A DNA stretch of 64,000 nt from an uncultured Candidatus Poseidoniales archaeon (GTDB lineage: Archaea > Thermoplasmatota > Poseidoniia > Poseidoniales > Thalassarchaeaceae): NCBI GenBank assembly GCA_963934165.1, contig CAWVXH010000002.1:38650-102649 (forward strand), written 5' to 3'. Under the pieces are notes generated by a model. The model did not search any database. It worked only from the letters and a program-made list of their open reading frames with translations, and was not told the origin of the DNA. Below, piece after piece: positions 12,798-62,010 of this stretch. Position 1 is the first letter of the stretch; each line of letters starts with the position of its first letter. Both the position numbers and the translations under genes were made by a program.

Positions 12798-12975
12798 TGA
12801 GTATTCACCCTTCAGTCTCCTACGCGAGAAAGTATTTCTATTATAGACATTATTACGCAATTGTCAAAAAGGTGCTTTCTTAGGGTGATTGATTAAGGAA
12901 ATATCTATGTTTTAGATAGAAAAAGAGTTTTTCGACCCATCAAAGAAAATATCAAACAGAATTGTTCATGCGCTA

Positions 12976-17187: not shown

Positions 17188-17958
17188 TCAGTAGACCATG
17201 TGGACTTCATCATCATCATCATCATCGCGTGGTGCTGGAAGGGCTGTTGATTGCGCGCGCTCGAAAGCTTCTCTGACGCGCGCTTCAATATTTCTTGCAT
17301 CGTCGAGTAATCCTTGAACAGGAATTTCCTTATCTAGAAGTTCAGATATCCCCTCGATAGCGATTAACGCAGCACGAGCGTCAGGATACATCGGATTGCA
17401 TTCGGCAAGCAGAGCAGTCACATCGAGACCTCTTCGCTCACCTTCAGCGATGAGATATCCCGAAATTCCTGAAACGATGCCGTGTTGAATTCGTTGAATT
17501 CCGGCATCATCAAGGTGATTTCTGCCTATTTGTGAAGAAGAAACTCCCCATAATTCACTATCTTCTTTAATTCCAAGTTCATTACTAACAACACCATCAA
17601 TGACAATTAGTCGATCGAAACCTCCCTTGGTGAACCATTCTAGGACGGTTTCGCCGAAATATATATCATTTTCAGACGGAAATTGTATTTCCGAAGTAAA
17701 AACTCCTATTTCTTCGCCTTGGTAGACACGAACAGGATGCTTTGGAATCGAATCGTGGATTAAGGCAATGGCAGGAAATTGAGGATGTAAAACAGTCCCC
17801 ATCACATCTAAATTCAACGAACTGATAAGATGTGATGTTGTGATCACACCAACTGAACCTACGGTGGAAAATCCACAAATAGCGGTTCCACCGAGGCGAT
17901 TCGGGTCTGCTTCAGCATGCAGAACCAATGGATAGGCCCCGTTGTGGTCTGCTCCCAT
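17188..17958 (-). CDS. PAC2-family protein (archaeal proteasome assembly chaperone, COG1938)
   Basis: ICGFSTVGSVGV N-terminal glycine-rich block. The YPDARAALIAIEGISELL block is typical of PAC2. It has an acidic DDDDDDE tail. Confidence 0.6.
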   Translation of the reverse strand: MGADHNGAYPLVLHAEADPNRLGGTAICGFSTVGSVGVITTSHLISSLNLDVMGTVLHPQFPAIALIHDSIPKHPVRVYQGEEIGVFTSEIQFPSENDIYFGETVLEWFTKGGFDRLIVIDGVVSNELGIKEDSELWGVSSSQIGRNHLDDAGIQRIQHGIVSGISGYLIAEGERRGLDVTALLAECNPMYPDARAALIAIEGISELLDKEIPVQGLLDDARNIEARVREAFERAQSTALPAPRDDDDDDEVHMVY

Positions 17959-18623: not shown

Positions 18624-19027
18624 GTGAAGAAGACACGCCAGAGAAGCCTGAGCACAAAGATTGGTCGTTTACGTCTCATATCGGCGAAGATTTGCGTGAT
18701 GTGAATCTCTCAGGAGCTGATTTGCGCAGAGCTGTTTTCGATGAAGCTGATTTAGAAGGTGCAAATCTCTCTGGCGCAGATCTGAGAAATGCCTCATTTT
18801 TACGAGCGAATTTGATGAAATGCGCATTTGATGGGGCTGATATGCGAGGAGCGAGATTCCTGAAGGCGAGAATGAACATGTCTAATTTTCAAAATACTAA
18901 GCTCGAAAATGCAGATTTACGGGGCATTCGGGGCCGATACGCAATATGGCGTGATGCAAATTGGTGGGATGCAAGAATGGATGACGAACTCGCAAAAGTT
19001 TTAGCAAAAAAATGGCCAAAACCCTAG
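18620..19027 (+). CDS. pentapeptide-repeat protein
   Basis: Tandem A(D/N)LxxA(D/N)L pentapeptide repeats, for example NLSGADLRRAVFDEADLEGANLSGADLRNASF. Confidence 0.8.
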   Translation: MSEEDTPEKPEHKDWSFTSHIGEDLRDVNLSGADLRRAVFDEADLEGANLSGADLRNASFLRANLMKCAFDGADMRGARFLKARMNMSNFQNTKLENADLRGIRGRYAIWRDANWWDARMDDELAKVLAKKWPKP

Positions 19028-19440
19028 TTAGATTGCATCTTTTCCAATCCTTCACGCATCCATCCCGGGACGGGTATTTTCTTGTTCACCTGCCTCATAT
19101 CAGTACACACCGTAACTTGATCTGCTGTCCAGCATAGAATACCATCTTGATTACGGAATTCGTAGTGCCAAGTGACGGATGTGGTTCCTATTTTTGCAAC
19201 TTTGATAGAGCAATGAACTGTGTCGCCATAGGCTAGAGGGTGTAGGAACTGGGCTTCGCTGTGGACAAGAGGAAATGCGATTTGGTGTTCACTCAGAATC
19301 TCATTGTAATGCATGCCACAGGAGAACTCCCAGGATTCTTCGTAGAATCGGTGCGCTAGATCCCAAAATTTTGGATAGTAGACAATCTTTGCCAAATCGA
19401 CCATCGGGAAGTCGATACGTCGGCTTGATACGAACGTCAT
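19024..19440 (-). CDS. hotdog-fold acyl-CoA thioesterase (YbgC/4HBT-like)
   Basis: Start moved to MTFVSSRRIDFPMVD (19440) because the longer listed ORF runs into a tRNA gene. The protein carries a 4HBT-like core with a DxxxHVNN-type N-terminal region. Confidence 0.65.
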   Translation of the reverse strand: MTFVSSRRIDFPMVDLAKIVYYPKFWDLAHRFYEESWEFSCGMHYNEILSEHQIAFPLVHSEAQFLHPLAYGDTVHCSIKVAKIGTTSVTWHYEFRNQDGILCWTADQVTVCTDMRQVNKKIPVPGWMREGLEKMQSN

Positions 19441-19507
19441 GATATTGCGTCTATGTGATTCCGCTTGAACACTATGTTGACGCACCCAAGGGTTTCTGAC
19501 GAGTAAA

Positions 19508-19584
19508 TGGCGAATCTGCCGCGATTCGAACACGGGTTTCCAGCTCCGGAGGCTAGAGTGATATCCAGGCTACACTACAGATTC
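19508..19584 (-). tRNA. tRNA-Arg (anticodon CCG)
   Basis: Reverse complement folds as a cloverleaf. Acceptor stem is GAATCTG/CAGATTC. The T-arm is CCGTG-TTCGAAT-CGCGG. The anticodon arm is CTAGC-CTCCGGA-GCTGG, giving anticodon CCG. CCA is encoded. Confidence 0.85.
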
Positions 19585-19727: not shown

Positions 19728-19804
19728 TGGCGGACCCACCGCGATTTGAACACGGGTTTGAGGCTCCGCAAGCCCCAGTGATATCCAGGCTACACTATGG
19801 GTCC
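19728..19804 (-). tRNA. tRNA-Arg (anticodon GCG)
   Basis: Acceptor stem GGACCCA/TGGGTCC is perfect. The T-arm is CCGTG-TTCAAAT-CGCGG. The anticodon arm is GGGGC-TTGCGGA-GCCTC, giving anticodon GCG. CCA is encoded. The D-arm and T-arm are identical to the neighbouring tRNA-Arg. Confidence 0.85.
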
Positions 19805-19862: not shown

Positions 19863-20273
19863 TCACAGGCTCAAAGGCAAAACAGTTTTCCAACTTGGTT
19901 GTGCTAATTTCTTTGATTTAGGACCGTCACGAGGATTTGCAGTCCCGTGTATGAGGGTGCCATGCATCCCTTCAACACTGAATTTAATTCGTAGTTCGAC
20001 CATCCTGTCGCGCTCTGCAATTTGCATCATCTCCTCATCGAGTTCGAAAGATGTTGCATTATCTTCAACTCCGTTGTTCTTGATGCTTAGGACATTTCCA
20101 TCGATCTCTGCCCTAGGAGAAAAATCATAGTCGGTTGGGTCGCCCATCAATACCTTGACATCCGCAATCAACCGATCGCGAATAGAGACCTTGGTTATCT
20201 CCATCGACTTGACCATGATGCTGCCACCGAGAACGACTTGAAAGCCCTTCGCACCAAAGCCGATGTTACTCAA
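19863..20273 (-). CDS. hypothetical protein
   Basis: 136-aa ORF that overlaps the upstream PKD-protein gene by 4 nt on the same strand. No motif recognised. Confidence 0.35.
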   Translation of the reverse strand: MSNIGFGAKGFQVVLGGSIMVKSMEITKVSIRDRLIADVKVLMGDPTDYDFSPRAEIDGNVLSIKNNGVEDNATSFELDEEMMQIAERDRMVELRIKFSVEGMHGTLIHGTANPRDGPKSKKLAQPSWKTVLPLSL

Positions 20274-21466
20274 ATTCCAATCTCACTTACTCGTGGAACA
20301 AGAATGATGTATTCAATAACCAATTTCCAATCATTACCACCATCTGGATCGACGCCATCTACTGGAAAGTCAGGGTCACATTGGTCGGCTGTGACTGTCC
20401 AAATCCAAGTTCCTTGACCAAAGCGCTGTCCAGCTTGATTCAACAAATCACCAGTCAACCACTCATCTGAGTCAGCCTGAGTGGAATATCCGCTTTCGGG
20501 GCGGTCATTCATCTCACTTCTTTCAATTGACGAAGTTGCATTTTCAGTGATATTATCGTGAGTTGTAGAAGAAAATGTATTCCATCCAGTCATCGGAACG
20601 CTCAGAGATAGTGTGAAATTATCTTCGGGCCACATTATCGGTAGAATATCTCGGGCGAGAGTAAGGGTTGCATTGACTTGAATCATCCTTGCGCCAGCCC
20701 CTGGTTCGTGTTCAAATTGGATGGAATCTCCTTGATTGAGATATCCTGAACGCTCGATTGTGACATGTTGTTCTTCCCAAACGATATGGAAATTACGAGT
20801 GATTACCTTCACCGTCCAAATCTCTGTCGAAACCCCTCCTTTGTCGTCGACAACGGTTAACTTGCCCGTGCGGTTGCCTGATTCAAAGATATCAAGAGAG
20901 GTTATCGAAGTGGTTGCATCTGCGTCGTTCTGGAAATCTCCGTCGCCGTTTGAATCCGCTCCTATGTTGAAATCCCAAATGAATTCAAGTGGGCCACCTT
21001 CAGGATCGAACGAATCCGTGGCGTCGAGCGTTGCAGATTCACCGGTTCTGACATAAGATGGCGATTCAATGAGAATTGTAGGAGGGGAATTCACAAAAAT
21101 CGTAATGGTAGCATGGTCTTGTTCACCTCTATCATTGACTACGACAACTTCTACATCGTGATTTCCAGCTGTTAGGAAAATGTGACTAACTATGCCCGTT
21201 TTTGTGGTGCGAGTGCCGCCATCATCGAAATCCCAGAGGAAATCCTTGATGATGGTGGGGTCTGGAGAAGAGGAATCTCGAGCATCGAAGTTTACAGTAC
21301 CACCTACATTTACTTCGTTTAGGTCGGCTGAAATATCTGCCCGAGGAATTGTGGCCGATAAACCGGTACATCCAGCCACTGAGACGAGTATCAACATTGC
21401 ACCGATGCCGAGTGTCATCGTCTGCGAGGTGCCCATCAATCCAGTTCTGCGTGATGTTGCCCTCAT
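20270..21466 (-). CDS. secreted or lipoprotein cell-surface protein with two PKD domains
   Basis: N-terminal signal with a VAGC lipobox-like site. Two PKD-like modules are present (WDFDDGGT ... and IWDFNIGADSNGDG ...). Confidence 0.75.
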   Translation of the reverse strand: MRATSRRTGLMGTSQTMTLGIGAMLILVSVAGCTGLSATIPRADISADLNEVNVGGTVNFDARDSSSPDPTIIKDFLWDFDDGGTRTTKTGIVSHIFLTAGNHDVEVVVVNDRGEQDHATITIFVNSPPTILIESPSYVRTGESATLDATDSFDPEGGPLEFIWDFNIGADSNGDGDFQNDADATTSITSLDIFESGNRTGKLTVVDDKGGVSTEIWTVKVITRNFHIVWEEQHVTIERSGYLNQGDSIQFEHEPGAGARMIQVNATLTLARDILPIMWPEDNFTLSLSVPMTGWNTFSSTTHDNITENATSSIERSEMNDRPESGYSTQADSDEWLTGDLLNQAGQRFGQGTWIWTVTADQCDPDFPVDGVDPDGGNDWKLVIEYIILVPRVSEIGI

Positions 21467-21536: not shown

Positions 21537-22376
21537 ATGGACAATGCCCACGGCGATACCTTCGTGTCTAGCGGAATGCTCACCGGCTATCGGGTTCTTG
21601 GATTTGATTTGGAAACTACTGGTTTCAATCCACGAAGTGAGCGGATTGTTGAATATGCATTGATTGGAAGCGATTGTGATGGAAGCCATATCCATTTGCA
21701 ATCATTGGTATATCCAGGTAAACGTATTCCCGAGCAAGCAACTCGAGTTCATGGAATTACAAATTCTGATGTGCGCGAATCAGGAGAATTTGCTCGACAT
21801 ATTTTTGATATTGCAAAATTAATGGATGATGCTGTAATCGTTGGACATAACGTCATTCGTTTCGATTGGACTTTTCTCGAAATGGAATGTGTTCGCGCAG
21901 GTGTTGAAACACCAAAACCACGAGCTATTATCGACACATTAGTCCTCGCAAAGCGTTTGCGAATTCCTGGCCGACACACTCTCGGTCATCTTTGTACAAG
22001 ATTTGGAATCGGCTTGGATAATGCTCACCGAGCAAGTGCCGATGCTGGTGCGACTCTACTTCTTCTGTGGGAAATGATGAAGGCAAACCCTCGTTGGTTC
22101 AGAGGGTCTCTAGATGATTTACAAGATTCTTTATCGGGTCAAAAGATAGATGATACCCTTGGGCCTGGACTTGTCGACCTCGAACCAATTCCTGGAACTG
22201 GGGGTAATTTACGTGAAAGTGAAAATGGTATCGTTATTGCCTTTGGCAAATATAAAGGTAGAACCTTACAGGAATTAAAGGTCATTGATCAACGATATTT
22301 AAATTGGTTATTTTCACCTTCAAGTCCAATTCCACAAACGATTTCAAATCAATTACGCGAAGACATTCTCGACTGA
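21537..22376 (+). CDS. DnaQ-like DEDDh 3'-5' exonuclease with a C-terminal DUF3820-like extension
   Basis: Exo I motif GFDLETTG. Exo II motif GHNVIRFDWTFL. Exo III motif HRASADAGAT. The C-terminal 65 aa (FGKYKGRTLQELKVIDQRYLNWL) resembles the DUF3820 / ExoX C-terminal module. Confidence 0.8.
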   Translation: MDNAHGDTFVSSGMLTGYRVLGFDLETTGFNPRSERIVEYALIGSDCDGSHIHLQSLVYPGKRIPEQATRVHGITNSDVRESGEFARHIFDIAKLMDDAVIVGHNVIRFDWTFLEMECVRAGVETPKPRAIIDTLVLAKRLRIPGRHTLGHLCTRFGIGLDNAHRASADAGATLLLLWEMMKANPRWFRGSLDDLQDSLSGQKIDDTLGPGLVDLEPIPGTGGNLRESENGIVIAFGKYKGRTLQELKVIDQRYLNWLFSPSSPIPQTISNQLREDILD

Positions 22377-23599
22377 TTCTCGCGTTGAGAAAAGAGCAAG
22401 GGCGACCATGGCAATACCTCACTCCAGTCGCCGAGATGGACTATTTTTCCATCGACTCTAGAACTGCCAAGAAAAATCGGACCTTTATATCCAGAATTCA
22501 GTAATTCATTCATCTGAATTTTGGCTTGATCACGAATAATCGCCCCGAATTTATGTTCAGAACGGGCTACTTCACCATCGTGACCGATTGGTGGCATTCT
22601 CTCAAATAATGCAGCACCTGCATCTGAGTCGAATCTTATCACCCGAACCACTTCGTCCCTAAACATCGGTCCTGGAGGCAAAATTCCATCACGCCTTGCA
22701 TTCCACCAAATTGGGCACCAAGCCTTGTACTCGCAAAACCCGCAGGCTTGCTCACTAGGAGTCGCTTCCATTGGCTCATCTGTCGGTCGCATTCCCTCCC
22801 AGGCGATAAGTGCGGCTGGCAACACAGAATCACCATCAGCACGATGAATCGTCTGATTTGCAGAATACCATCCTTCGGCCGAAACTTCAGGATGATCTGG
22901 ATTTATTTCTTTCAATAAATCTCGATAAAATCGTAATTGACGGCTGACCTTCTCATTCAAGTTCACTTTCGGCGGTCTGCCGGTTTTCAAATCCGCAACA
23001 ATCCACCCTCGAGAAATTCCTTCCTTATCGATATCAGCGATCAATAAATCTAGCCTACCCATCAATCGACCACATTCTGAAACCAAAGTTCCTTCGTTTG
23101 CTAAAATTATGGATTGAATTTGCTTCCATTGACCAATCGTCACCTCCGAGAGGCCGATCTCACCGACTGGTGATTTAGAAAATAATATGTTCAAAGCACC
23201 GATTAGTCCATCATGTGCTTTGGTAATCATCTCCGCTTTCCATCTCGGATGACGAGGAGTTTCAAGAAAATTTTTCTTCTCTATCGCCCAATGGCGGTCG
23301 AGAATCGCCTTCGCAGTAGAAGGAAGCCATCCGACTTCGCTTTCGTCTCGGTCGCCCACATCGATATTACAAATATCCTCGACCGAATTATGCACTGCAT
23401 TTCCCATAGCGGCTGGCATGCTTGCCTTACGAGGTAGACGTTGACGTGAAAGCCAATATTTCCTCGGACATTCCTCGTATCTACTCCAAGAAGAAGGTGA
23501 TAATTGATGTGCGATAAATTCCTCAACCATCTTCAATACCTCATGCTCGCTACGATATAAGGTCCTCTTACAGTCATAACGATTAACACCTTTCACCAC
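22349..23599 (-). CDS. Cas4/RecB-like PD-(D/E)xK nuclease with a 4Fe-4S cysteine set
   Basis: N-terminal Cys in a CPRKYWL context, as in the Cas4 YCPRK motif. GRLDLL...IVADLKTG forms the D...DxK core. QLRFYRDLL fits the QxxxY motif. C-terminal CGFCEYKAWC fits C-x2-C-x5-C. There is an extra roughly 120-aa C-terminal region. It overlaps the exonuclease gene tail-to-tail by 28 nt. Confidence 0.7.
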   Translation of the reverse strand: MVKGVNRYDCKRTLYRSEHEVLKMVEEFIAHQLSPSSWSRYEECPRKYWLSRQRLPRKASMPAAMGNAVHNSVEDICNIDVGDRDESEVGWLPSTAKAILDRHWAIEKKNFLETPRHPRWKAEMITKAHDGLIGALNILFSKSPVGEIGLSEVTIGQWKQIQSIILANEGTLVSECGRLMGRLDLLIADIDKEGISRGWIVADLKTGRPPKVNLNEKVSRQLRFYRDLLKEINPDHPEVSAEGWYSANQTIHRADGDSVLPAALIAWEGMRPTDEPMEATPSEQACGFCEYKAWCPIWWNARRDGILPPGPMFRDEVVRVIRFDSDAGAALFERMPPIGHDGEVARSEHKFGAIIRDQAKIQMNELLNSGYKGPIFLGSSRVDGKIVHLGDWSEVLPWSPLLFSQRENQSRMSSRN

Positions 23600-23612
23600 T
23601 CACTGTCCTACA

Positions 23613-24419
23613 ATGTCTGAGGCACCCGCGGTTGAAGTCGACCCCGAAATCGATGTTTCTGGTGCGCTAATCGTATGTTGTTTTCCTTCACTTGGCTTCG
23701 TTAGCAGTATCGTAGCGCATTATTTAGTTGAAAAATTAGAATTGAAATTGGTCGGCGGAGTACGCCATCCCTCTCTTCCGCCGGTCTGTTTGGTTCAGGA
23801 AGGATTGCCCCTACCACCATTGCGATTTTACTCAGGTGAGCCGATTTGTAGTATGAAGGAATGCAATAAAGTAATTTTGATTGCATCGGAAATTCAAATT
23901 TCTTCTAAATTATGTTTACCACTTACCGAAGCCCTGTTGAATTGGTGTAAAACAAATAATACTGGTCCAATGATTATGGTAGATGCCTATGCCCTAGGAA
24001 TTGAACATAAGCACACAATTTTCGATGATGATGATTCAACTGAAACTCTGCTCGGTATCGGTTCGACCACCGCTGCGCACAAGATTTTAACAGATCTTAA
24101 AGTTCCTTTATTGCAACAAGGAGTGGTTGGTGGAATGACTGGAGTTATGATGGGTGAATGTCGACGACGCAATTCGATAGGAATGGCGATTTTAGCTGAA
24201 TCTTCTGGTAAAATCGGAAATGGTGCGATTCCAGATGCAAGAGCTGCTGCGAGAATTATTGAATGTCTAGATGGTTTATTGCCTGCTGTTCATCTCGATC
24301 CTGAACCCTTGTTAGAAGAGGCTCAGAGACTTGAACAACAGATTCGGGACATGATGGCTGCGACTCTGAATCCAGTTGCAGAAGATGCATCTTCGGCACC
24401 TACAACAATGTATGGATAA
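23613..24419 (+). CDS. PAC2-family protein (second paralog)
   Basis: ALIVCCFPSLGFVSSIVAHYL glycine-rich N-terminal block. The IPDARAAARIIECLDGLL block matches the motif in the 17188-17958 paralog. Confidence 0.6.
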   Translation: MSEAPAVEVDPEIDVSGALIVCCFPSLGFVSSIVAHYLVEKLELKLVGGVRHPSLPPVCLVQEGLPLPPLRFYSGEPICSMKECNKVILIASEIQISSKLCLPLTEALLNWCKTNNTGPMIMVDAYALGIEHKHTIFDDDDSTETLLGIGSTTAAHKILTDLKVPLLQQGVVGGMTGVMMGECRRRNSIGMAILAESSGKIGNGAIPDARAAARIIECLDGLLPAVHLDPEPLLEEAQRLEQQIRDMMAATLNPVAEDASSAPTTMYG

Positions 24420-26582
24420 TCAATAGTCGAATAGCGTTGCGCGCTTTTCTTCGTCTTTTTTTGTTGTTTCCGGTTGCGAATTTACATCACTGACTAACAA
24501 ATTGAATTCAACTTCGTTCAATATTCGAACACCTAATCGGGTTGCCTTTTCAAGTTTTGAACCTGCAGATTCGCCAGCGATTAAAACGCTCAATAGACCC
24601 GAAACAGAAGAAACAACTTTGCCACCTTCTGCCTTAATTAACAATGCTATTTCCTTCCTTGGCCGACTCAATGTTCCTGTTATGCAGAATGTTTGGCCGA
24701 AAAAATTTCCCTCAGAGGTGGGGGCCGATTGGTCTGAAATTTCTAGTTGATTTGTCAAATCGACGACTGTTGCTAATCTAATTGCGATTCCATTCAATAA
24801 TTGAGTTGCAACAGTCGTACCTACTCCTTCAATTTCGATTAATTGTGATATCGCAAAATTATGTTTGAATGGTTTACCAGTCTCATCTTCACCGACTTTA
24901 TCATCGCGGGCTTCAACCAACTCAAGAAGAGTTGTGATTGTTCCGACTTTTTCTGCGATACTAACGGCGATTTCTGGGCCTATTCCGGGTAATCCTAATG
25001 CCGATAGGAATCGGCTGAGAGTTAGCGATCTAGTCGCACCTAGTTCATCGATTACCTTCGTTGCAGATCGCTCAGCCATCCGCTCTAATTGGAGTAAATC
25101 TGGGATATTTAGTCGATAGAGATCTGCAAGTGTGTTGACCAATCCTTCAGCGATTAATTGAGCTGCTAATTTTTCGCCGATCCCATCCATCTCAAGTGAG
25201 CGACACCAATATACTATCGAGCGCTCGAGCCTAGATGCACAATCAAGATTTTTACAACGAATAAATGCCCCATCTTCGACTAATTCGAAGGAGCAGGAGG
25301 GACAGATTTTCGGGATAGAAATCTCGGCTATATTTGGTAAAATTCCAATAAATTCGGAGCCATCTGCATGAGAGAGACCGCTAATATCAATAATTTTTGC
25401 TGCGCCGAGGGTTTCAATGATTTTAGGAATTACATCACCTCGTCGAACTATTCTTACCTTATCACCAATTTTTATTCCCAAACGCTCTAATTCACCTGAA
25501 TTATGTAGTGTTACATTCTCGACAGTCACTCCTGAAACCACCACTGGTGCAACACGAGCAACCGGAGTTACCGTTCCTGTTCTGCCGGTTTGCCAATCGA
25601 CATCCATCAACACACTAAATGCTTCTTCTGGCGGGAATTTCCACGCCAATGCCCAACGGGGATGATGTGCGGTTTTACCGAGCAATCCGCGTTTTTCGAG
25701 CTGGTCTAATTTGATGACTATCCCGTCAATCTCCCAATCCGCATCTGCTCGATGTTCAGCCCAATATTTGGTCACATCAATGATTAAGTTTGATGTCGAA
25801 TCATCATCATTTCCTTTGACTACGGTATTTCCAGCAATTTCAATTCCAATCGTAGTAAGCCATTCATTTGCTTCGGAGTCGAAAATATAATTTGGTGGTT
25901 CTGGGCTATCAGGATGACGATATTCATTGCTTGGGAATTGGACATCGTAGGCAAGGAATATCAAATCAGCAGCATCACCTTTTCCTGATTCGATATTTTT
26001 TTGCCGTAGAGAACCAGCTGCTAGATTTCGGGGATTCGGAGCAATTCCAGAATATTTATGTCTAAAAATTGCCAGTGGCATCACGACTTCACCTCGAATA
26101 TGACAATCTCCTTGCCAACTAAGTGATTCGGGAATGTTAGCTATTCGACGAGCGTTGGCAGTCACGTCCTCTCCACGCAAACCACTGCCTCTCGTCGCTG
26201 CCCTGACCAGTCGTCCGCGACGATATTCTAATGAGAGAGCTGAGCCATCAAGTTTTGGTTGACAAACAAATTGCCTACCATGGGCGGTAGTTTGGCCAAC
26301 AAAGTGAGATATCTCATCCGATTCTGTGGCTTTGTCAAGACTACTCATAGGAAAAAGATGGGTGATTTTTTCGGTTCCAGCCGGTGGATCTGACCCGACA
26401 CGATTCAATTGTGGATTTTCTGAATCTAAAGACTTTAATTCATCCCATAATACATCAAATTCAGCATCTGATATTTCCGGAGAGGCTTCGTTGTAATAGA
26501 GGTCTGAATGATAAGAAATTTGCTCGGATAACCATTCGATGAGCGCCCGCTCATCACCTACGTCTGGGCGCTCTCCAACCAT
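24420..26582 (-). CDS. ligA: NAD-dependent DNA ligase
   Basis: Adenylation motif KLDGSA(L). Zn finger CPSCSFELVEDGAFIRCKNLDC. HhH repeats (LPGIGPEIAVSI) and a C-terminal BRCT region (FCITGTL) are present. Confidence 0.95.
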   Translation of the reverse strand: MVGERPDVGDERALIEWLSEQISYHSDLYYNEASPEISDAEFDVLWDELKSLDSENPQLNRVGSDPPAGTEKITHLFPMSSLDKATESDEISHFVGQTTAHGRQFVCQPKLDGSALSLEYRRGRLVRAATRGSGLRGEDVTANARRIANIPESLSWQGDCHIRGEVVMPLAIFRHKYSGIAPNPRNLAAGSLRQKNIESGKGDAADLIFLAYDVQFPSNEYRHPDSPEPPNYIFDSEANEWLTTIGIEIAGNTVVKGNDDDSTSNLIIDVTKYWAEHRADADWEIDGIVIKLDQLEKRGLLGKTAHHPRWALAWKFPPEEAFSVLMDVDWQTGRTGTVTPVARVAPVVVSGVTVENVTLHNSGELERLGIKIGDKVRIVRRGDVIPKIIETLGAAKIIDISGLSHADGSEFIGILPNIAEISIPKICPSCSFELVEDGAFIRCKNLDCASRLERSIVYWCRSLEMDGIGEKLAAQLIAEGLVNTLADLYRLNIPDLLQLERMAERSATKVIDELGATRSLTLSRFLSALGLPGIGPEIAVSIAEKVGTITTLLELVEARDDKVGEDETGKPFKHNFAISQLIEIEGVGTTVATQLLNGIAIRLATVVDLTNQLEISDQSAPTSEGNFFGQTFCITGTLSRPRKEIALLIKAEGGKVVSSVSGLLSVLIAGESAGSKLEKATRLGVRILNEVEFNLLVSDVNSQPETTKKDEEKRATLFDY

Positions 26583-28448: not shown

Positions 28449-31400
28449 TCATAAGCTGAAGCCGTCGTTCTCATTTTCTTCATCAATTCCAGCAATTCTT
28501 GTGTTACCTTCAGAATCGATGAACTCACCGGCTTTCACACGCGAGCCATAAAGGGTCGATTCATTAGACGATGTTCGGTTCAACATACTCTCCCCGAGAG
28601 CATTGCTTAGATGATTGATAAGCGCCTGTAGAGCTGCAATTGCTCGATCCCTTTGATCCGCCCCGATTTCGTGGTCTGAATATCGCGCTTCTTCAAAGAT
28701 TGAAAACAATGTATCCAAATCTTCAGGTGGCATTATTCCTCCAAGCATGGCATTTATTGCATCCTCAAATTCACGAGTTGTTTCATAGACTTTCTTCATA
28801 GCTCCACGGCTGCGGAAGAAACGAACTAAATCCTTGTAACAATTGAAAATTGTCTGAATATAATCATTCGATGCTTTCAATGACATCAATGAATCTGTGA
28901 GGATTCCACGAATTATTTCGATTCGGCGGCGCTCATTGTAATTTCGATACATTATCGCACCGATTAGGACAGCGAATGCTAGAGCAATTCCAATAACTGT
29001 CAAGACCTTGAACGTGAAGAAATTCGCGTTTTGTTCAACAAGAGGCTCACCGAGATAAATCACCGGTGTGCTGTTAAGGAACTCTTCTTGGAAAAACGAC
29101 GATTCTTGGAAATGAATCAGAACTCGCCATTTGCCATTCACAGCAGTAATATCGAGCTCTCCAGGCACTTCTTCTCCGGTGTAAATAAAGCTGAAATTCG
29201 CCTCACCATGCTCATTTGTCACAGCGTATTCAACATTATTTGTTTCCCATCCTGTGCCATTCCAATACTGAAAGGTGAAGATAACAGTTTCACCTTCAAC
29301 TGAAACATCCAAACGGTCTCGCAAAATTGCCACGGCCCCAGCGACTTCATCACCGATCTGGTAACCCAATGGATTTGACCAATGGTTCTTCAGCAAAATA
29401 TCAACCTTGCTTCTGACTAGAACTTCGACATCTTGGAACGAACCATTGACGACTGGGGTCGTCTCAGCCCGGCAACCTCCGGGTAATTCCTTAGTCGGCT
29501 CATATGCAACTCTAATCGTCCTGAAGCCCTCTAACTGGTTTCCGTTTGGCTCAACACCACGGCGGCTTGGATTATCATCCGGATCGCCGGAATACCATTC
29601 AATTTCACCAGTGCCATCACGAGTGATGGCAGTTGCGATAGGACGGGTATTAGTTTCAGGGTCGAGGTAGATGTTGAGACACTTTCCTCCGACTGGATTA
29701 CCATTGACTTGAGTCAACATTGCATCGATATGGAACGATTCCTTTAGGTAAAGAACTGGGAAAACAGTTCCGTTTTGGAATTGATATGTGTCGACATCAG
29801 TACGGAATGGCCCTACTTCTTGGAAGGTCATTGTAGAATTAGAAAAGACAGGGAAGAACTTCGTTAAACTCGAATTTTTATATCGATATTGATCTCCGGT
29901 TTCATATGAAAGGAAATTCACAGTTACCTTCGCTTGACCTGCTTGAACGTCATTTAGTGGGCAAATTACATCGAACATGCCATTGATGTCAGTTATATCA
30001 CCTTGGCAAGATTTTACGCCTAAATCAGAGCCGACCATTTCGTATTGAACCTGGATTGCTCGGTTCGATAGATTCGAGCCAAGCTCATCGATTAACTGAC
30101 CGGTAACAACCATCGGTTTATCGATAGCTTGGCCAGTAACTGGGTCAATTTCAGAGGTGTAAACAATCTGATCGTCAACAGAAAGCGTGGTGCGGCCAAT
30201 CAGGCTGAATCCACGCTCATCGTGACGGAAAATCTTTCGATAATGATCGCTGTTGAGAATTTGGTCGCAAGGATCCCAAGCACCTGAAATTCTCAACATT
30301 TCCTCATCGAGAGGTTCACAACCTTCATGGGGAAGGTTTTCTGCGAAACGAAGGATGACATTGACTGGTCCAAATCCGTCAGGAAGGAAGGAATTAGGGT
30401 CATCTCTGAGCAATTGTGGATCTAACAACATTCTGTAATTAATTGAACCCGCATTAGGGCAAAGCGTCTCAACGATTTGCCTATGAATGCGTTGTTCGAA
30501 ATCGACGCCTTCAAGAATCACTAAAATTTCTCCGCCATTTTCATCACATCCATCGAGGAATTCGCCTTTATCCTTGATAGCGGCGGTTCGATTATCGTCT
30601 GTTACCTGAGCACTGAATTCCCAATAATCTCCACTCGAAAGACGATTTTCTGTCGTACTTTGGAGAGACACAAATGTTCGAGAAACAACCCAGAGGTTGA
30701 TTTCGTGAGCACTGCCTTGGCGATATGTGTCGCCTGGATATGTGTAACTTAGAGTGAAATTACCGAGTTGATGCATTTCATCAATTGTCAAATTGACTTG
30801 AAGAACACCGTTATGATCGGTTATCGCTATATCGCTAGTTCCGTCTGCAGACCAAGTGAAATTCACTGGAGCATCGCGAACAGGCTGATACGCATTGTCG
30901 ATGAGCCGTGCCTCAATTGTTGTATTTTGTCCTCGATAAAGACGTGGTATCAGATTCATTTGGAAATCGGTAGTACCAATGACTGAGATGTTCACATATG
31001 CACCTGTCGGCGCGAGAACATTCGATTGATTTCCAGTAAAGTAGAAATTCGAATTTGTAAAATCTGCACGGATTCCAAATACGCCCGCTGCATATTGAGA
31101 ATACCAGGTCCAGTTGTAATCGAATACTGCTTCGCCGTTCACCATATCTGGAGCACGCGCAAATCCAGTCTCTTGGGAACCTGCGAAAACACCGTTGTGA
31201 TCTACATCAACCTGTAGAGCCATAGGGTCGTGAGGCCATGCGGTCATAGTTCGGTTCCAAACCGTTCCAATAATTCTGAACGTTTCTCCTGTGAACATTT
31301 CTGGTACAATTTCACATCTCGCATCGCTTTCCGGATCTCTTGGGTCAATCGGTCCACATGGTGGAACGTTGAAATCCCCCCCATTTTGCATTGCGATGAA

Positions 31401-34400
31401 CCAATGAGTGCCATTCGAAGAGAGGAATGGGCGTAATCTACCAGACTCACCCGTCAATCCTTCAGGCGTACCATCCCAGAGCATAGCATATGGTTTCCCA
31501 AGACTTTCTGTACCGAAATCAAGGCCTGCATTAGCCAAGGACGGGGAGTGGAATAATGCTCGCCATGCTCCGAAAGAAGAGCCGGTGAATTGAGTTGAAT
31601 CCCAAAAGTAAACTGGCCGGATGGATGGGGTTATCACATCTGCTTCGATATACATTCTATGCATTGATCGGATCGCGAATGAATCTGTTTCATCGCCCTC
31701 TAGATATGGCCAAGGCCATTCTGCACCTAAATCGGGTCGAGACATACCAATGAAAAGATAGTCGCCAATCGGTAAACTGGTGTTTGTATATTCATATATT
31801 CCAATCATGCTGTGTGATTTTGAAGTGTTATCCCAAACAATTTCCTCATAAGCACCAGGAACTTTTCCTACTCCATTATCAATTGTTGAATTCCATTGAA
31901 CCTGTTTCCAAATACCTTGGCTTCCGCTCGATTGAACAAAGGAGAGTGAAACCCACCCTCCTGAATCAGATCGATAACCGTAGCCATAACCATCGAACAC
32001 AGTAGGATGAGTGGCATTACCAAATGGGCCACCGTGGACGGTGAACGAAATCGGTGCATGTGAGAGTCTGTTGTCAAATTTACCTCTCTCCCAATCTGCA
32101 GTATAGTGTACCTTGTAATCGATGAAGAGTGGCTGTTCATCACTACGGAAATATGTCCATGCAACATAATCAATTGTTGTGTTCGCTCGGACTTCGGTTG
32201 GAACCGGTTCTGTTGCAGCACCATCGTGAATGAACATTTCAGTTACTTCTGCATATACATTATAAGTCAAATTAGAACCGACTGTCAAATCCTCTGGGAA
32301 GAGGAATTGACCAACCACATAATTACCGTTCTCGTCGGTAAGAACATCGATTGTCTCAAGAGCAGTTGTACCATTACGAGCCCAATCAATATGGATTTGA
32401 ACGGGCAGATTTGGGGCTGGCATGAAGACACCCTGCTCAGGATCTAGCCAATTTACAGTACCATTGAACTTGACAGCATAACGATAATCCAGCCACATTA
32501 CTTCTGGGACGGTTAGTGTAATTCTAGTAGGTATTTTATCATCTTCATCTAAGATGCCATCATTGTCAGAATCCCAGTCAGAAGTATTTCCATCCTCTTC
32601 CTCAAACTGATCCCAATCCGTATCTGTGCGATTATCGGTATCGTCATCTTCATCGATTGCATCTGGGCCGGTTTGAGGATCTGTTGGATTAGCAATACCT
32701 TCGCCGCCTCCGAAATCATCATGATCCCATGGATTAGTTGATTGATTATTGAATCGAGATGGCCAAAGCATAACTTCGTCAGCATCTTCCATTCCATCTG
32801 AATCATCATCCAAGTCAATATCATCTCGCAACCCATCATTATCGTGATCCCATGCTGAAATTAGAGGAGTCGCTGTAGCCAATTCGAGAGTGTTGACTCG
32901 CCCATCCCCATCCCAATCATCATCAGCCCAGTTCAATATTCCATCATTATCGTGATCCCAAACAAATTGTTCTTCTCCGACGAAACAAAGTAGTTCCTGG
33001 TCTGCATCGAGAATTCCATTGTTATCATCATCTGGATCCTCGCCATCCGGAACACCATCGTTGTCATTGTCGACATCGTAATACTTCGGATGTAGTAATC
33101 CTTGCCCTAGTATTCCAACATCCCAAACAGCTTGGTACCATCCGTCGTTATCCGGGTCGGTATCTGTCCCATCATCATCATTGTCATCACAATTTGAACC
33201 GATGAAGAAATTGCCAGCCGGCTCGGTATTAGCATCGTCATCATGGTCATCATTTGTGTCAACTTCGAAATAATCCCAGATACCGTCATTATCATCGTCG
33301 ACATCCCAATGATCGAAAACATTGTCGAAATCATCGTCCAAGTCTGCTGTATCATTGAACATACATTGTGGGTTCATATTTCCTGAAACGGGTGCTCCGC
33401 AATCATCATCTGGATCGACGTCATTATTGAGTAAATCAGCCTTTTCATCGGGGAACCAATTTGCATTTGAATCAGAATTCCACTGGAAAAAGCCGTAGTT
33501 TAAGCCAACGTAAGCAATCCACAAATCTCGGTTATTTGCTATTTGATTGTATGTTACGGCAGAGCTTGGGCTAGGATTACTCCCTGGGTCGAAAGTAAAC
33601 CAGAAGCAATTCTTGTTACATGTCCATTGCCCCTGAGAATTACTGCCATTATATGGACCATCATCATATTCTGAATCTGGGCGAGAACTGTATGGATATG
33701 TGTAAACCAATTGGCCTTGATTGGTTGAACTTGGGCTAATAATCGGTGCTCCGTAGAGCCATGCATAGAACAAACCGCAAACGTGTTCCTCAGCTAATCC
33801 TGCCATAAATGCGAGGAAAAGGGAAGAGCCACATTCATTATCATCAAAAGTACCACCAAATTTGATGTCATTAACGTCGAGTTGCCCATCATTACCTTCA
33901 TCCTGATCCCACCAATCAGGCAGTCCATCTCCATCTTGATCGATATCGATTCCGTTGATTAGAGAATCTCCATCAGTATCTATATCAAAGAAATTGCCGC
34001 CATTGAAAGCACTCCAACGTTGAATAACATGCCAATAAAGTTCTGGGACCTTTCCGCTATCATCAGGTGAGACTGCCGAATCATATCCATTGTAATTCAA
34101 AATAAATCCATCTTCAGAAGTGAATGGATTAAACATCCATGATTGATTCCAATAGAAGTTATGGGCGATATCGTGTGCATATATCTGGCCATCATTCGAA
34201 CCATCGAGCAAATCACCATCGTCAGTTGGATAAGTCGAATCAAAAATATCAGTAGTGTCGAAGTCTTGAATTCCACAATTTCCATCATCTGGGTCGTAAT
34301 AATCAGAAATTCCATCATTATCATCATCCCAATCCTCATCATTCTGTAATCCATCGCCATCGATGTCTGTGTCGAGATGGTTAGGTCCGTCGTCTCGATA

Positions 34401-36401
34401 GAGCGAACCATTCAACAAATGCATGTCATTGTCATCATCGAAATCACAATTATCATCCATATCGAGCCAATCTAGAATCCCATCATTATCATCATCGACA
34501 TCATCCCAATTATTGATTCCATCACCATCCCAGTCATTAAAACCAGTATACGATTTTCTCAATAAGTAACAATTGTCATGAGGATTCTGTGGATTAGGAT
34601 TGGTAAGGCTTGGGCAATCCCAGCCATCTACGGTGTCCTGGTGAACATTTGGGAAGATATCAAGTTCGTTGATTATTCCATCATTATCCAAATCCCAAGG
34701 TTCGTCGTTTGGATCAAGGGCGGGTGCCCCGACTGGATTGTCAGGAAATGGAGTTCCTCCCATATCTGGGTCGAGCCAATCCCATACCAAATCGTAATCT
34801 TGGTCGATGACTCGATAGCGGTCATCATCTGCATCACGATCATAATCTAGTTCACAATCGATTCCCGGGATCTCGATTGGGCCGGACACCGGTAAATCAC
34901 CAACCCCATCTCCATTGGTATCGACTTGATGGCAACGATCAGGAATTCCATCATTATCATCATCGACATCATACATATCGGCCAAACCGTCGTTATCATC
35001 ATCGGTATCCGAAGAATCTGGTGAGCCGTCATTATCATTGTCTGGATCGATGAAATTTGGAATCCCGTCACCGTCTAAATCACCGTCGACAATATAGCTA
35101 AATGATTGCTCGCGGGGATGCCAAGCCATTTCTCTGTCAACGAAATCAACGCCTCCAACATATTGAGAGTAAGTCCGTAAATTAGCTGTTGAATTTACAT
35201 TAATTGACCCAGTCATTGTTGAGTGGATTGTACAATCATAGCCTAAAGTTCCTGCCGTAGCAAAGGTCATTGAAAATGTCCCACTAGGTGCAATATTACC
35301 ACTATCGAATGATCCTCCGATGCTTTCAGTAACTGTATGATCTGTGGTATCATCATTCGTCCAGACGATTGTGTCACCCACATTGATATTGATATTTCTT
35401 GGAGAAAAACCAGAACTAGTTATCGAAACGTGATGCACTTGGGCAGAATGCCAATCTACTGCAGCTGACCAATTTGCTGCAACATTTGTGATATTTCCGG
35501 AACGAGTTGAATCCCAAGGGTGTTCATCCCATAGATCTATTACTCCGTCACCATCATCATCCAAATCAAAATAATCAGCATCTCCATCACCATCAAAATC
35601 ACATGGCCAAGTGAATTGATCAATTCGTCCATCGTTATCATCGTCTTCATCATAAGAACCTCGACCTGAACCATCAATATCTTCATCCGGGATTCCATCA
35701 TTGTCGTGATCGTAGGGATTCTGGTCAATTCTGTAACCATTTCCAATTACTAAACCCGTCCAAGGGTGAACGGTATTCGATTGAACATAACGATCTGAAC
35801 TGACATTTTGCGGATCCGCACCTTGTGAATAATCGATTGGCCCTTCTAGAATTCCGTCGTTATCATCATCCCAATCGAATTCATCTTGAATTCCATCATT
35901 ATCGTGATCGTAAGGATCGGTCCCATAGCAGCCATCGAAACGCTCGATTAAATCAGCGATACCATCGTTATCATCGTCTAAATCATACAAATCTGAGATG
36001 CCATCGTTATCGTGATCTTTGGTATCCGTCTCTTCAAGGAAAAATCCATAACTCGGATCCAACGCAAGGGCGTCACGGTCACTTATCTTCCCATAAACTG
36101 CCATCGGATCATTATAAAACGGATCGGTAAAGGTTGGATCATTAAAGCTGTTTTGAGCAGCAGGGTTACTTACTCCATCTCCAGTTACGGGACCAGATGC
36201 TGTGTTAATTTGTTGATATGATGTACGCTTTTCGGTAGGTTCCCACTCAACATCATTTACCTCTTCATATGAATCAAAATCTTGTAATGAATACATTTGT
36301 GTGCTAAACAACATCAAAAATACCATCAAGACTGCTGTAATTCCTTTTTTGGTATTTGCAATACCGAATCCATTACTGATTTTACCTAACATCGTAACCA
36401 C
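28449..36401 (-). CDS. giant (2650 aa) type-I membrane cell-surface protein with thrombospondin-type-3-like Asp-rich calcium-binding repeats and an embedded cupredoxin domain
   Basis: N-terminal signal/TM. Dozens of DxDxDGxxDxxD repeats (DHDNDGIPDEDIDGSG, DDDNDGILDWLD and so on). The mid-section is a beta-rich NxT-studded region. A single C-terminal TM (FTFKVLTVIGIALAFAVLIGAIMY) precedes a roughly 170-aa cytoplasmic tail. Confidence 0.85.
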   Translation of the reverse strand: MVTMLGKISNGFGIANTKKGITAVLMVFLMLFSTQMYSLQDFDSYEEVNDVEWEPTEKRTSYQQINTASGPVTGDGVSNPAAQNSFNDPTFTDPFYNDPMAVYGKISDRDALALDPSYGFFLEETDTKDHDNDGISDLYDLDDDNDGIADLIERFDGCYGTDPYDHDNDGIQDEFDWDDDNDGILEGPIDYSQGADPQNVSSDRYVQSNTVHPWTGLVIGNGYRIDQNPYDHDNDGIPDEDIDGSGRGSYDEDDDNDGRIDQFTWPCDFDGDGDADYFDLDDDGDGVIDLWDEHPWDSTRSGNITNVAANWSAAVDWHSAQVHHVSITSSGFSPRNININVGDTIVWTNDDTTDHTVTESIGGSFDSGNIAPSGTFSMTFATAGTLGYDCTIHSTMTGSINVNSTANLRTYSQYVGGVDFVDREMAWHPREQSFSYIVDGDLDGDGIPNFIDPDNDNDGSPDSSDTDDDNDGLADMYDVDDDNDGIPDRCHQVDTNGDGVGDLPVSGPIEIPGIDCELDYDRDADDDRYRVIDQDYDLVWDWLDPDMGGTPFPDNPVGAPALDPNDEPWDLDNDGIINELDIFPNVHQDTVDGWDCPSLTNPNPQNPHDNCYLLRKSYTGFNDWDGDGINNWDDVDDDNDGILDWLDMDDNCDFDDDNDMHLLNGSLYRDDGPNHLDTDIDGDGLQNDEDWDDDNDGISDYYDPDDGNCGIQDFDTTDIFDSTYPTDDGDLLDGSNDGQIYAHDIAHNFYWNQSWMFNPFTSEDGFILNYNGYDSAVSPDDSGKVPELYWHVIQRWSAFNGGNFFDIDTDGDSLINGIDIDQDGDGLPDWWDQDEGNDGQLDVNDIKFGGTFDDNECGSSLFLAFMAGLAEEHVCGLFYAWLYGAPIISPSSTNQGQLVYTYPYSSRPDSEYDDGPYNGSNSQGQWTCNKNCFWFTFDPGSNPSPSSAVTYNQIANNRDLWIAYVGLNYGFFQWNSDSNANWFPDEKADLLNNDVDPDDDCGAPVSGNMNPQCMFNDTADLDDDFDNVFDHWDVDDDNDGIWDYFEVDTNDDHDDDANTEPAGNFFIGSNCDDNDDDGTDTDPDNDGWYQAVWDVGILGQGLLHPKYYDVDNDNDGVPDGEDPDDDNNGILDADQELLCFVGEEQFVWDHDNDGILNWADDDWDGDGRVNTLELATATPLISAWDHDNDGLRDDIDLDDDSDGMEDADEVMLWPSRFNNQSTNPWDHDDFGGGEGIANPTDPQTGPDAIDEDDDTDNRTDTDWDQFEEEDGNTSDWDSDNDGILDEDDKIPTRITLTVPEVMWLDYRYAVKFNGTVNWLDPEQGVFMPAPNLPVQIHIDWARNGTTALETIDVLTDENGNYVVGQFLFPEDLTVGSNLTYNVYAEVTEMFIHDGAATEPVPTEVRANTTIDYVAWTYFRSDEQPLFIDYKVHYTADWERGKFDNRLSHAPISFTVHGGPFGNATHPTVFDGYGYGYRSDSGGWVSLSFVQSSGSQGIWKQVQWNSTIDNGVGKVPGAYEEIVWDNTSKSHSMIGIYEYTNTSLPIGDYLFIGMSRPDLGAEWPWPYLEGDETDSFAIRSMHRMYIEADVITPSIRPVYFWDSTQFTGSSFGAWRALFHSPSLANAGLDFGTESLGKPYAMLWDGTPEGLTGESGRLRPFLSSNGTHWFIAMQNGGDFNVPPCGPIDPRDPESDARCEIVPEMFTGETFRIIGTVWNRTMTAWPHDPMALQVDVDHNGVFAGSQETGFARAPDMVNGEAVFDYNWTWYSQYAAGVFGIRADFTNSNFYFTGNQSNVLAPTGAYVNISVIGTTDFQMNLIPRLYRGQNTTIEARLIDNAYQPVRDAPVNFTWSADGTSDIAITDHNGVLQVNLTIDEMHQLGNFTLSYTYPGDTYRQGSAHEINLWVVSRTFVSLQSTTENRLSSGDYWEFSAQVTDDNRTAAIKDKGEFLDGCDENGGEILVILEGVDFEQRIHRQIVETLCPNAGSINYRMLLDPQLLRDDPNSFLPDGFGPVNVILRFAENLPHEGCEPLDEEMLRISGAWDPCDQILNSDHYRKIFRHDERGFSLIGRTTLSVDDQIVYTSEIDPVTGQAIDKPMVVTGQLIDELGSNLSNRAIQVQYEMVGSDLGVKSCQGDITDINGMFDVICPLNDVQAGQAKVTVNFLSYETGDQYRYKNSSLTKFFPVFSNSTMTFQEVGPFRTDVDTYQFQNGTVFPVLYLKESFHIDAMLTQVNGNPVGGKCLNIYLDPETNTRPIATAITRDGTGEIEWYSGDPDDNPSRRGVEPNGNQLEGFRTIRVAYEPTKELPGGCRAETTPVVNGSFQDVEVLVRSKVDILLKNHWSNPLGYQIGDEVAGAVAILRDRLDVSVEGETVIFTFQYWNGTGWETNNVEYAVTNEHGEANFSFIYTGEEVPGELDITAVNGKWRVLIHFQESSFFQEEFLNSTPVIYLGEPLVEQNANFFTFKVLTVIGIALAFAVLIGAIMYRNYNERRRIEIIRGILTDSLMSLKASNDYIQTIFNCYKDLVRFFRSRGAMKKVYETTREFEDAINAMLGGIMPPEDLDTLFSIFEEARYSDHEIGADQRDRAIAALQALINHLSNALGESMLNRTSSNESTLYGSRVKAGEFIDSEGNTRIAGIDEENENDGFSL
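35187..35444 (-). other. amicyanin/plastocyanin-like type-1 copper (cupredoxin) domain inside the giant protein
   Basis: Residues about 320-405: NVGDTIVWTNDDTTDHTV ... GTLGYDCTIHSTMTGS. The His ... Cys-x2-His-x2-Met ligand spacing is identical to amicyanin (CTPHPFM). Confidence 0.6.
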
Positions 36402-38241: not shown

Positions 38242-38883
38242 GTGGATATGGTTCGCATTACAAGGATTCACACTGGTGGCGGAGACGGAGGTGAAACTTC
38301 TCTCCTCGATGGAGAAAGGGTTGGAAAGGATCATCCCCGTGTTGCATTTTATGGCACAATCGATGAAGTAAATTCACAGATTGGAGCCGTCAGAATGGAA
38401 CTAAATCGAATCGAAAAAATAGCACCAGATGGTGGCCAAAAAACAAATCTAATTCGTGCAGCAGAATTGGCAGACAAACGCTTAGGTATTATTCAACAAG
38501 AATTATTTGACATTGGGGGAGAATGTTCTTGCACACCAGGAAAATTACCGAAAATGATGGAATTAATATCTGAGCAGCAATGCGAAAGATTAGTCGAGGA
38601 GATGAACGAATGGATCGAAGATCTCGAGCCACTCGAATCTTTCATAATTCCTACAGGATCTCCTCCCGTCGCTACCCTGCACGTAGCTCGGTGTGTCACG
38701 CGTCGAGCAGAAAGGGACGCTTGTGGACTTCGCTCAATTGAAGGTGAATATGCCATTAGAGCAGAAGTAATATCATACTTGAATAGGTTATCTGATTGGC
38801 TCTTCGTTCTCGGAAGATGGATTACAGTAAAAACCGGTGAAGAAGAAGTTTTGTGGATGCCTCTCGGTAAAAGAAATGCTTAG
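38242..38883 (+). CDS. PduO-type ATP:cob(I)alamin adenosyltransferase
   Basis: RIHTGGGDGGETSLLDGERVGKD...AFYGTIDEVNSQIG ... IIPTGSPPVATLHVARCVTRRAER. Canonical PduO/MMAB blocks. Confidence 0.8.
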   Translation: MDMVRITRIHTGGGDGGETSLLDGERVGKDHPRVAFYGTIDEVNSQIGAVRMELNRIEKIAPDGGQKTNLIRAAELADKRLGIIQQELFDIGGECSCTPGKLPKMMELISEQQCERLVEEMNEWIEDLEPLESFIIPTGSPPVATLHVARCVTRRAERDACGLRSIEGEYAIRAEVISYLNRLSDWLFVLGRWITVKTGEEEVLWMPLGKRNA

Positions 38884-54067: not shown

Positions 54068-54077
54068 AGGGGTCAAC

Positions 54078-61883: not shown

Positions 61884-62010
61884 TCCATCGCCTCCTTTCT
61901 GAGAGAAAGGTAAAATACTCCGCCAAACCATCATATATAAAACTAACAAAATAATAATTAGGACTAAAGTCTACTAAATCACTAACTTACAAAGAAGAAA
62001 TATATTGAGA

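Follow-up and report, generated by a model that had tools for sequence, protein, structure and literature searches.

A DEDDh exonuclease, an iron–sulfur (Fe–S) nuclease and LigA, an NAD-dependent DNA ligase, are encoded close to one another on a 64,000-nucleotide stretch of DNA (hereafter the window) from an uncultured Candidatus Poseidoniales archaeon of the family Thalassarchaeaceae (contig CAWVXH010000002.1 of assembly GCA_963934165.1). An earlier note on this DNA had taken them for a DNA-end processing cluster. Our analysis indicates that they are probably three independently transcribed housekeeping genes of DNA metabolism, lying in a conserved segment of the core genome and forming neither an operon nor a defence island. 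On this reading, the neighbourhood would be an inherited gene order. The exonuclease, of the ExoX/DnaQ type, would remove nucleotides from 3′ ends, and the nuclease, by analogy with Cas4 and the nuclease of Dna2, may trim single-stranded 5′ tails or flaps. LigA would have come from bacteria, replaced an ATP-dependent enzyme and now act as a general ligase in both replication and repair, its replicative part being our inference.

The exonuclease gene (21537–22376, + strand) encodes an ExoX-like protein of 279 residues and meets the nuclease open reading frame (ORF; 22349–23599, − strand; 416 residues from GTG 23599) tail to tail, with a 3′ overlap of 28 nt (22349–22376). Next come a gene for a PAC2-family proteasome assembly chaperone (23613–24419, + strand; 268 residues; PF09754 at 6.7e-27) and the LigA gene (24420–26582, − strand; 720 residues). 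On the other side lies a PKD-domain protein gene (20270–21466, − strand; PF18911/PF00801), which is divergent from the exonuclease gene and served as a control neighbour. The ORF list reproduced exactly the coordinates and the tail-to-tail overlap given in the earlier note, and its three enzyme identities were upheld by the Pfam and NCBIfam profiles. Because the strands of these five genes alternate in the ORF list, there is no operon and no co-transcription. The nuclease and PAC2 genes diverge from a shared intergenic stretch (23531–23612), which contains the TATA-like element GATATAAGG at about 23553–23561, a putative promoter of the nuclease gene. The start of that gene is where the earlier call has to be amended: since homologues align to the ORF only from M24 onward and the TATA-like element lies 23–30 nt upstream of ATG 23530, translation most likely begins at ATG 23530 and not at GTG 23599. 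The gene would thus extend over 22349–23530 (− strand) and encode 393 residues, comprising an Fe–S PD-(D/E)XK domain and a C-terminal OB fold.

Gene order and the convergent overlap

Gene order was compared in the best 80 genome loci, all of which belong to marine group II b (Thalassarchaeaceae). The order L18e–L13–S9–RpoN–LigA–PAC2–nuclease–exonuclease was found in 80/80 of them, with the PKD gene next in most; conservation of the order in relatives, on which the earlier proposal depended, is thus borne out. In the window too, downstream of LigA come tRNA-Pro and then RpoN, S9, L13 and L18e. The PAC2 gene, which has no relation to DNA metabolism, always stands between the nuclease and LigA in these loci. 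Conserved order is by itself no proof of a functional link, because the whole region is syntenic.

More distant loci, found by searching representative proteins and then looking up their contigs, show which parts of the segment persist. A freshwater or estuarine relative (L084) and three GC-rich contigs (GC 52–69%, nuclease ~40% identical) retain the order PAC2–nuclease–exonuclease–(small ORF)–PKD, and thioesterase and pentapeptide genes further along are also retained in two distant relatives. In the distant relatives, LigA and PAC2 are separated by one, two or five genes unrelated to them, and the ribosomal block is no longer present. In another relative (L081, 3067–4649 of NODE_13966, GC 37%), the order is LigA–PAC2–nuclease–PKD, with no exonuclease gene at its usual place. 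PAC2 and PKD, which are unrelated to the enzymes, hold their positions no less strictly than the enzymes do, and for this reason we take the block to be an inherited gene order. Of the proposed DNA-end processing cluster, the conserved adjacency stands, whereas a functional cluster is not supported, given the alternating strands, the equal conservation of PAC2 and PKD, the insertions and the missing exonuclease gene. As a separate observation, three GC-rich loci (L085, on a 3.0 Mb contig with GC 68%; L086, GC 69%; L087, GC 52%) keep both the PAC2–nuclease–exonuclease–PKD order and the LigA tail motif described below, and the 3 Mb contig of L085 suggests a larger-genome sister lineage of marine group II archaea.

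The 28 nt overlap had been taken as a sign of antisense-coupled expression, that is, of a 3′ overlap that couples the two convergent genes by antisense transcription. The overlap is indeed widespread, being present in 79/80 Thalassarchaeaceae loci, and since the stop codon of the exonuclease gene is followed by a first T5 tract only after ~70 nt, transcripts probably run into the neighbouring gene. Nevertheless, this arrangement is hardly peculiar to the pair. Across the ten convergent pairs of the window, the gaps measure 0, 33, 0, −4, −28, 0, −4, −4, −18 and 0 nt, i.e. 0 or less in 9/10, and termination would fall inside the neighbouring gene throughout the genome, because convergent genes almost always abut or overlap by 4–28 nt and leave next to no room for a terminator. 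Overlap lengths across the loci are not conserved (4, 9, 12, 14, 15, 21, 23, 28, 30 or 82 nt), the nuclease side of the overlap falls in an unconserved tail modelled at low confidence (residues 384–393), and in the GC-rich relatives, whose genomes are roomier, gaps of 13, 368 and 124 nt replace the overlap. The overlap is a by-product of genome streamlining and not a device specific to this pair, and we give almost no credence to antisense coupling. Locus L032, with an apparent overlap of 529 nt and runs of X in the translation, was left out as an artefact of assembly or masking. Other convergent junctions of the window fall, for example, at 3928/3929, 17187/17188, 19024–19027, 24419/24420, 38880–38883, 40356–40359, 44299–44316 and 59606/59607.

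The nuclease and the exonuclease

The nuclease was matched by PF12705 (PDDEXK_1) over profile positions 1–247 of 247 at 6e-23 (82.5 bits, cut-off 22). In an alignment of 15 homologues with 52–74% identity to the window protein, C21, D161, D180-x-K182, Q198…Y202 and C263-x2-C266-x5-C272 are invariant; the Fe–S and D…(D/E)xK motifs, whose absence would have spoken against the earlier assignment, are thus all present. The nuclease domain proper covers residues 9–282 (22685–23506, − strand), with D161, D180-L-K182 and Q198…Y202 and a profile match to AdnA/AdnB, and the C263-x2-C266-x5-C272 cluster (22715–22744, − strand) completes with C21 a four-cysteine Fe–S motif. The four cysteines, D…(D/E)xK and QxxxY are also hallmarks of Cas4; Fe–S binding by the nuclease is a prediction. 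However, with the Cas4 model TIGR00372, for which the cut-off is 65 bits, the protein scored 18.6 bits, and PF01930 was absent from the Pfam matches at E ≤ 0.01; hence, it is not Cas4 proper. The original description as a Cas4/RecB-like nuclease therefore holds for its RecB/AddB-type half, and in Cas4 phylogenomics PF12705 forms a separate branch without major CRISPR-associated clades (PMC5704561). A direct phmmer search of PDB sequences with the nuclease gave no match, while a profile search placed the AdnA/AdnB nuclease domains on top and a Cas4 weakly. The family is narrow: 27 of 1.84 billion representative proteins match at 1e-30 or better, and most of them are fragments. A relative is encoded in 253 species-level genomes, the homologues carry the labels Thalassarchaeaceae, Poseidoniales or Thermoplasmatota, and the closest genome contigs reach 95–98% identity at the protein level, which places the source of the window in marine group II b.

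The AlphaFold model of the full-length nuclease (pLDDT, the predicted local distance difference test, of 82.3) has mouse Dna2 (5eax) as its top Foldseek match, with E 4e-8 over 411 columns at 13% sequence identity, followed by AdnAB, the Argonaute-associated Cas4-family protein ACE1, AddB and Cas4. Beyond the nuclease domain, the model shows an OB fold with topology β1-β2-β3-α-β4-β5 (residues 289–376; 22403–22666, − strand), a C-terminal domain that had previously gone unremarked. Modelled alone, the domain reached a pLDDT of 89.8 and matched HIN-200 OB folds, Teb1 OB-B and SSB-like proteins. The protein ends ~20 residues beyond the OB fold, and its conserved C-terminus, LPWxPLL, does not resemble the PCNA-interacting peptide (PIP) discussed below for LigA. 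No helicase domain was found in it by Pfam. The models thus describe a helicase-less Fe–S enzyme of the RecB/AddB class that carries an OB fold of its own at the C-terminus. The Fe–S module of Dna2 and AddB closes a tunnel that threads single-stranded DNA (PMC4716839). By analogy, the Fe–S cluster of the nuclease would staple its N- and C-terminal extensions together, and the OB fold would most likely hold single-stranded DNA.

The exonuclease was matched by PF00929 (RNase_T) at 4e-25 (89.7 bits, cut-off 24) and by PF20600 (ExoX-like_C) at 28.1 bits (cut-off 26.5). In the catalytic domain (residues 22–182; 21600–22082, + strand), the DEDDh residues D24, E26, D110, H164 and D169 line up with those of the PolC exonuclease domain (2p1j and 9qpc), and PolC/DnaQ exonuclease domains are its closest solved relatives. 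The ExoX-like C-terminal motif FGKYKGRTLQELKVIDQRYLNWLF occupies residues 236–259 (22242–22313, + strand). Against the ExoX equivalog NF005937 the protein scored 31.3 bits, matching in the C-terminal motif only, where 202 are required, and it stayed below every equivalog cut-off. The exonuclease is dimorphic across species: about half of them have a form of ~200 residues lacking the ExoX-like tail and the others a form of 263–284 residues with it, a split that tracks clades. A PIP-like tail was looked for on the exonuclease and none was found.

The ligase and the rival readings

LigA exceeds the equivalog cut-off of TIGR00575 (543.9 bits, cut-off 444.45) and has the complete domain set by Pfam (domain Ia, OB, four-cysteine zinc finger, HhH and BRCT), including the adenylation motif K110-LDG and the zinc-finger cysteines C427/C430/C443/C448. 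Among archaea as a whole, an NAD-dependent ligase is out of the ordinary, as the earlier note remarked, but not in marine group II, for which its presence without an ATP-dependent counterpart was published in 2006 and 2014. On the marine group II fosmid HF70_B12, an NAD ligase lies beside RNA polymerase and ribosomal genes; it is ~45% identical to spirochaete LigA and was ascribed to a separate lateral transfer (Poidevin and MacNeill, 2006; PMC1684257). Table 3 of Borrel et al. (2014; PMC4153887) later listed marine group II without an ATP-dependent ligase but with an NAD-dependent one of bacterial derivation. The acquisition behind the window LigA is the one already reported in these studies. 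No KxDGxR motif or Pfam domain of an ATP-dependent ligase was found in the window, which is a weak test, as it covers 64 kb of a genome of ~2 Mb. LigA is most likely the only DNA ligase of the lineage, and because marine group II reportedly lacks an ATP-dependent ligase, it is probably the general ligase of the cell and not a dedicated part of a cluster.

The C-terminus of LigA carries an add-on past the bacterial family model. The match to TIGR00575 stops at model position 651/652, which corresponds to residue 692; 28 residues remain (693–720; 24423–24506, − strand), ending in KKDEEKRATLFDY. The terminal motif, R-A-T-L-F-D-Y-COOH (24423–24443, − strand), is PIP-box-like and corresponds to a family consensus of Q-x-x-L-x-x-[FYW]-COOH. 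Among 82 orthologues and relatives, including the distant GC-rich ones, the strict form of this ending occurs in 75/82 and a loose form in 80/82; examples are RQSTLGEF, QQMSLGDY and TQRSLFEY, and, in GC-rich relatives, PQSRLSDW and QQASLTDF. With the tails anchored on the right, the pairwise identity is 0.61 over the last seven residues and 0.20 over the preceding 20, and the linker after the BRCT domain is acidic and varies in both length and sequence. The same ending is found in 0/94 ORFs of at least 100 residues in the window. The archaeal PIP consensus, QxxLxxFx, typically lies at the C-terminus of proteins such as PolD DP2, the RFC large subunit and RNase HII (PMC7776575). Compared with the PIP-box pattern Qxx[LIVM]xx[FYW][FYW], the LigA motif likewise forms the very end of the protein, behind a variable linker, and is kept among orthologues. 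The tail thus resembles an archaeal PIP, would probably dock the enzyme on archaeal PCNA and suggests that the borrowed LigA was adapted to the archaeal clamp. If real, it supports LigA as a PCNA-coupled general ligase over LigA as a dedicated nuclease partner. No archaeal NAD-dependent ligase was found described with a tail of this kind in the literature searched, the coverage of which was incomplete, and we claim no priority for it.

Several observations weigh against our interpretation of the locus. The window tail, RATLFDY, has R for the canonical Q and one aromatic residue instead of two, so that it is a degenerate PIP at best, and the absence of an ATP-dependent ligase is taken from the 2014 table, which covers one marine group II genome. 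In the PADLOC defence library, which sets no curated cut-off, the nuclease matches DruK best (1.8e-10, 38.5 bits), over part of the profile (positions 114–242 of 326). Furthermore, the PAC2–nuclease–exonuclease adjacency outlasts the rearrangement of its flanks in relatives, which possibly reflects a selective constraint on order. One rival proposal is that the OB nuclease acts on 5′ tails, the DEDDh exonuclease on 3′ tails and LigA as the sealing enzyme, the three forming a functional module for processing ends or flaps, the adjacency of which was selected; suggested roles include microhomology-mediated end joining, long-flap Okazaki maturation and gap repair. The predicted activities do complement one another, and the nuclease and exonuclease genes are adjacent not only in all 80 Thalassarchaeaceae loci but also in the three ~40%-identity relatives with a rearranged LigA side. 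However, a module of this kind fits poorly with alternating strands and what appear to be separate promoters, with a block in which PAC2 and PKD are equally conserved and the thioesterase and pentapeptide genes are kept too, with the extra genes that separate LigA from PAC2 in distant relatives, with the L081 lineage that has no exonuclease gene between nuclease and PKD, and with the tailless exonuclease of about half of the species. We regard it as unlikely. Still less likely, in our judgement, is a broader version, according to which a bacterial LigA replaced the ancestral ATP-dependent replicative ligase and then gained its PCNA-docking tail, while the Dna2-like OB nuclease and the ExoX-like exonuclease became the flap- and end-trimming toolkit of the lineage, giving a hybrid bacterial/archaeal system of lagging-strand maturation and repair.

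The library match raises another alternative, namely that the nuclease, either by itself or paired with the DEDDh exonuclease, serves as a stand-alone effector of antiviral defence akin to DruK and to solo-Cas4 nucleases. PADLOC also returned PDC-S48 and a Cas-associated DEDDh protein for the exonuclease, and remote relatives of the nuclease keep both its core and the C-terminal β domain (hhalign probability 98.4%, alignment A2). Two such relatives (L089, 557–7224; L090, 3113–9700) stand beside DruA, an 1815-residue DEAD/MZB (DruE-like) helicase and BrxC/BrxD-like genes, and these two loci are Druantia-like defence loci; the YprA/Druantia preprint makes no mention of a Cas4-like partner, and the name DruK was not met in the literature searched. 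Despite this kinship, the gene in question does not behave like a defence gene: in every relative examined, it is fixed among ribosomal, tRNA, chaperone and ligase genes, unlike defence genes, which are patchy and mobile. A partner helicase is lacking, and neither DruA nor the DruE helicase occurs in the window or at any Poseidoniales locus examined. As the earlier note had stated for cas1/cas2 and CRISPR arrays, no cas domain in the large ORFs and no CRISPR repeat array occur across the 64 kb window, nor do any at the related loci. A viral origin finds no support in the phage collection, which gave no tblastn match to the nuclease; its only likeness on the phage side consists of fold matches of the nuclease domain to phage RecB-family exonucleases. 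Solo Cas4-like genes, moreover, mostly evolve as ordinary, vertically inherited cellular genes (PMC5704561). We therefore hold a defence role to be very improbable.

Three independent housekeeping genes in a conserved segment remain our preferred interpretation, and this has consequences beyond the locus. If the LigA tail binds PCNA, it would show cleanly how an essential enzyme gained by horizontal transfer is fitted into a replisome foreign to it, and it would open that integration to direct tests by peptide–PCNA binding. The OB-fused, helicase-less nuclease is a compact candidate for processing single-stranded tails or flaps in a lineage whose repair set is reduced and partly bacterial. Furthermore, the apparent cluster and the overlap are ordinary effects of inherited order and streamlining, which bears on how similar matches in compact genomes are read.

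The wider window and comparison with known systems

Elsewhere in the window, a PAC2 paralogue (17188–17958, − strand; 1.9e-32) lies ~5.7 kb from the one beside the nuclease (23613–24419, + strand; 6.7e-27), and the two may be a pair of the PbaA/PbaB kind. Two genes for tRNA-Arg, with CCG and GCG anticodons (19508–19584 and 19728–19804, − strand), are 144 nt apart; because the thioesterase ORF at 19024–19533 runs into the first of them, its true start lies further downstream. Other information-processing genes encode MCM (506–2659, − strand), a DEAD-box helicase (52760–54136, − strand) and TFB (60957–61949, − strand). A class II (B12-dependent) ribonucleotide reductase of 1218 residues is encoded at 55950–59606 (+ strand); its barrel is matched in two stretches with TSCPD distant from them, and an insertion, for example an intein, could account for the extra length. 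At 28449–36401 (− strand), a protein of 2650 residues is full of Asp-rich DxDxDG-type (calcium-binding-like) repeats, with only a weak Big_1 and a C-terminal DUF4129 as Pfam matches, and a giant homologue occupies the same place in two relatives (L082 and L083). Two large fused transport genes, one for a 1292-residue transporter with two branched-chain amino-acid permease modules (5433–9311, − strand) and one for a 1099-residue protein with SBP_bac_3 and two Peripla_BP_6 solute-binding modules (9561–12860, − strand), are adjoined by two ABC (ATP-binding cassette) ATPase genes.

Among known systems, the nuclease shares D…DxK, QxxxY and C…Cx2Cx5C with the RecB-family proteins of PF12705/COG2887, such as AddB and mycobacterial AdnA/AdnB. 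In AddAB and AdnAB, the nuclease is fused to or stands beside a UvrD-like helicase, whereas the window nuclease stands alone and adds an OB fold; no helicase gene lies next to it, its neighbours being the PAC2 and DEDDh exonuclease genes, and the only helicase genes of the window, for MCM and the DEAD-box protein, are far off. Its model follows Dna2, which acts on single-stranded ends, in having an Fe–S-stapled PD-(D/E)XK nuclease and then a β-barrel (the Dna2 domain order is from PMC4716839). However, Dna2 has a superfamily 1 (SF1) helicase half and N-terminal OB/α1 elements that bind Rpa, both of which are missing here, and the modelled resemblance is one of architecture and not of family membership. 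With Cas4 and solo-Cas4 the nuclease has the four-cysteine Fe–S and RecB motifs in common, and archaeal solo-Cas4 genes are likewise stand-alone and vertically inherited (PMC5704561); compared with Cas4, the nuclease has twice the size and an additional OB domain, and it lacks a cas/CRISPR context. Unlike the DruK-type nucleases of Druantia-like defence loci, the window gene is without DruA/DruE partners and keeps a fixed core-genome context.

The exonuclease shares the DEDDh residues and the ExoX-like C-terminal motif with E. coli ExoX and the DnaQ/PolC exonucleases; unlike E. coli ExoX, it is an archaeal host gene product with a tail that is dispensable in about half of the related species. 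Flavobacterium phage 'epsilon' proteins match 92% of its length at 30% identity. LigA has the same domain set as bacterial LigA and adds the C-terminal extension of ~28 residues; the haloarchaeal LigN is another NAD-dependent ligase with which it was compared. The components of the locus are thus known kinds of enzyme, and the variants worth noting are the predicted OB-fused, helicase-less AddB/Dna2-like nuclease and the PIP-like tail of LigA.

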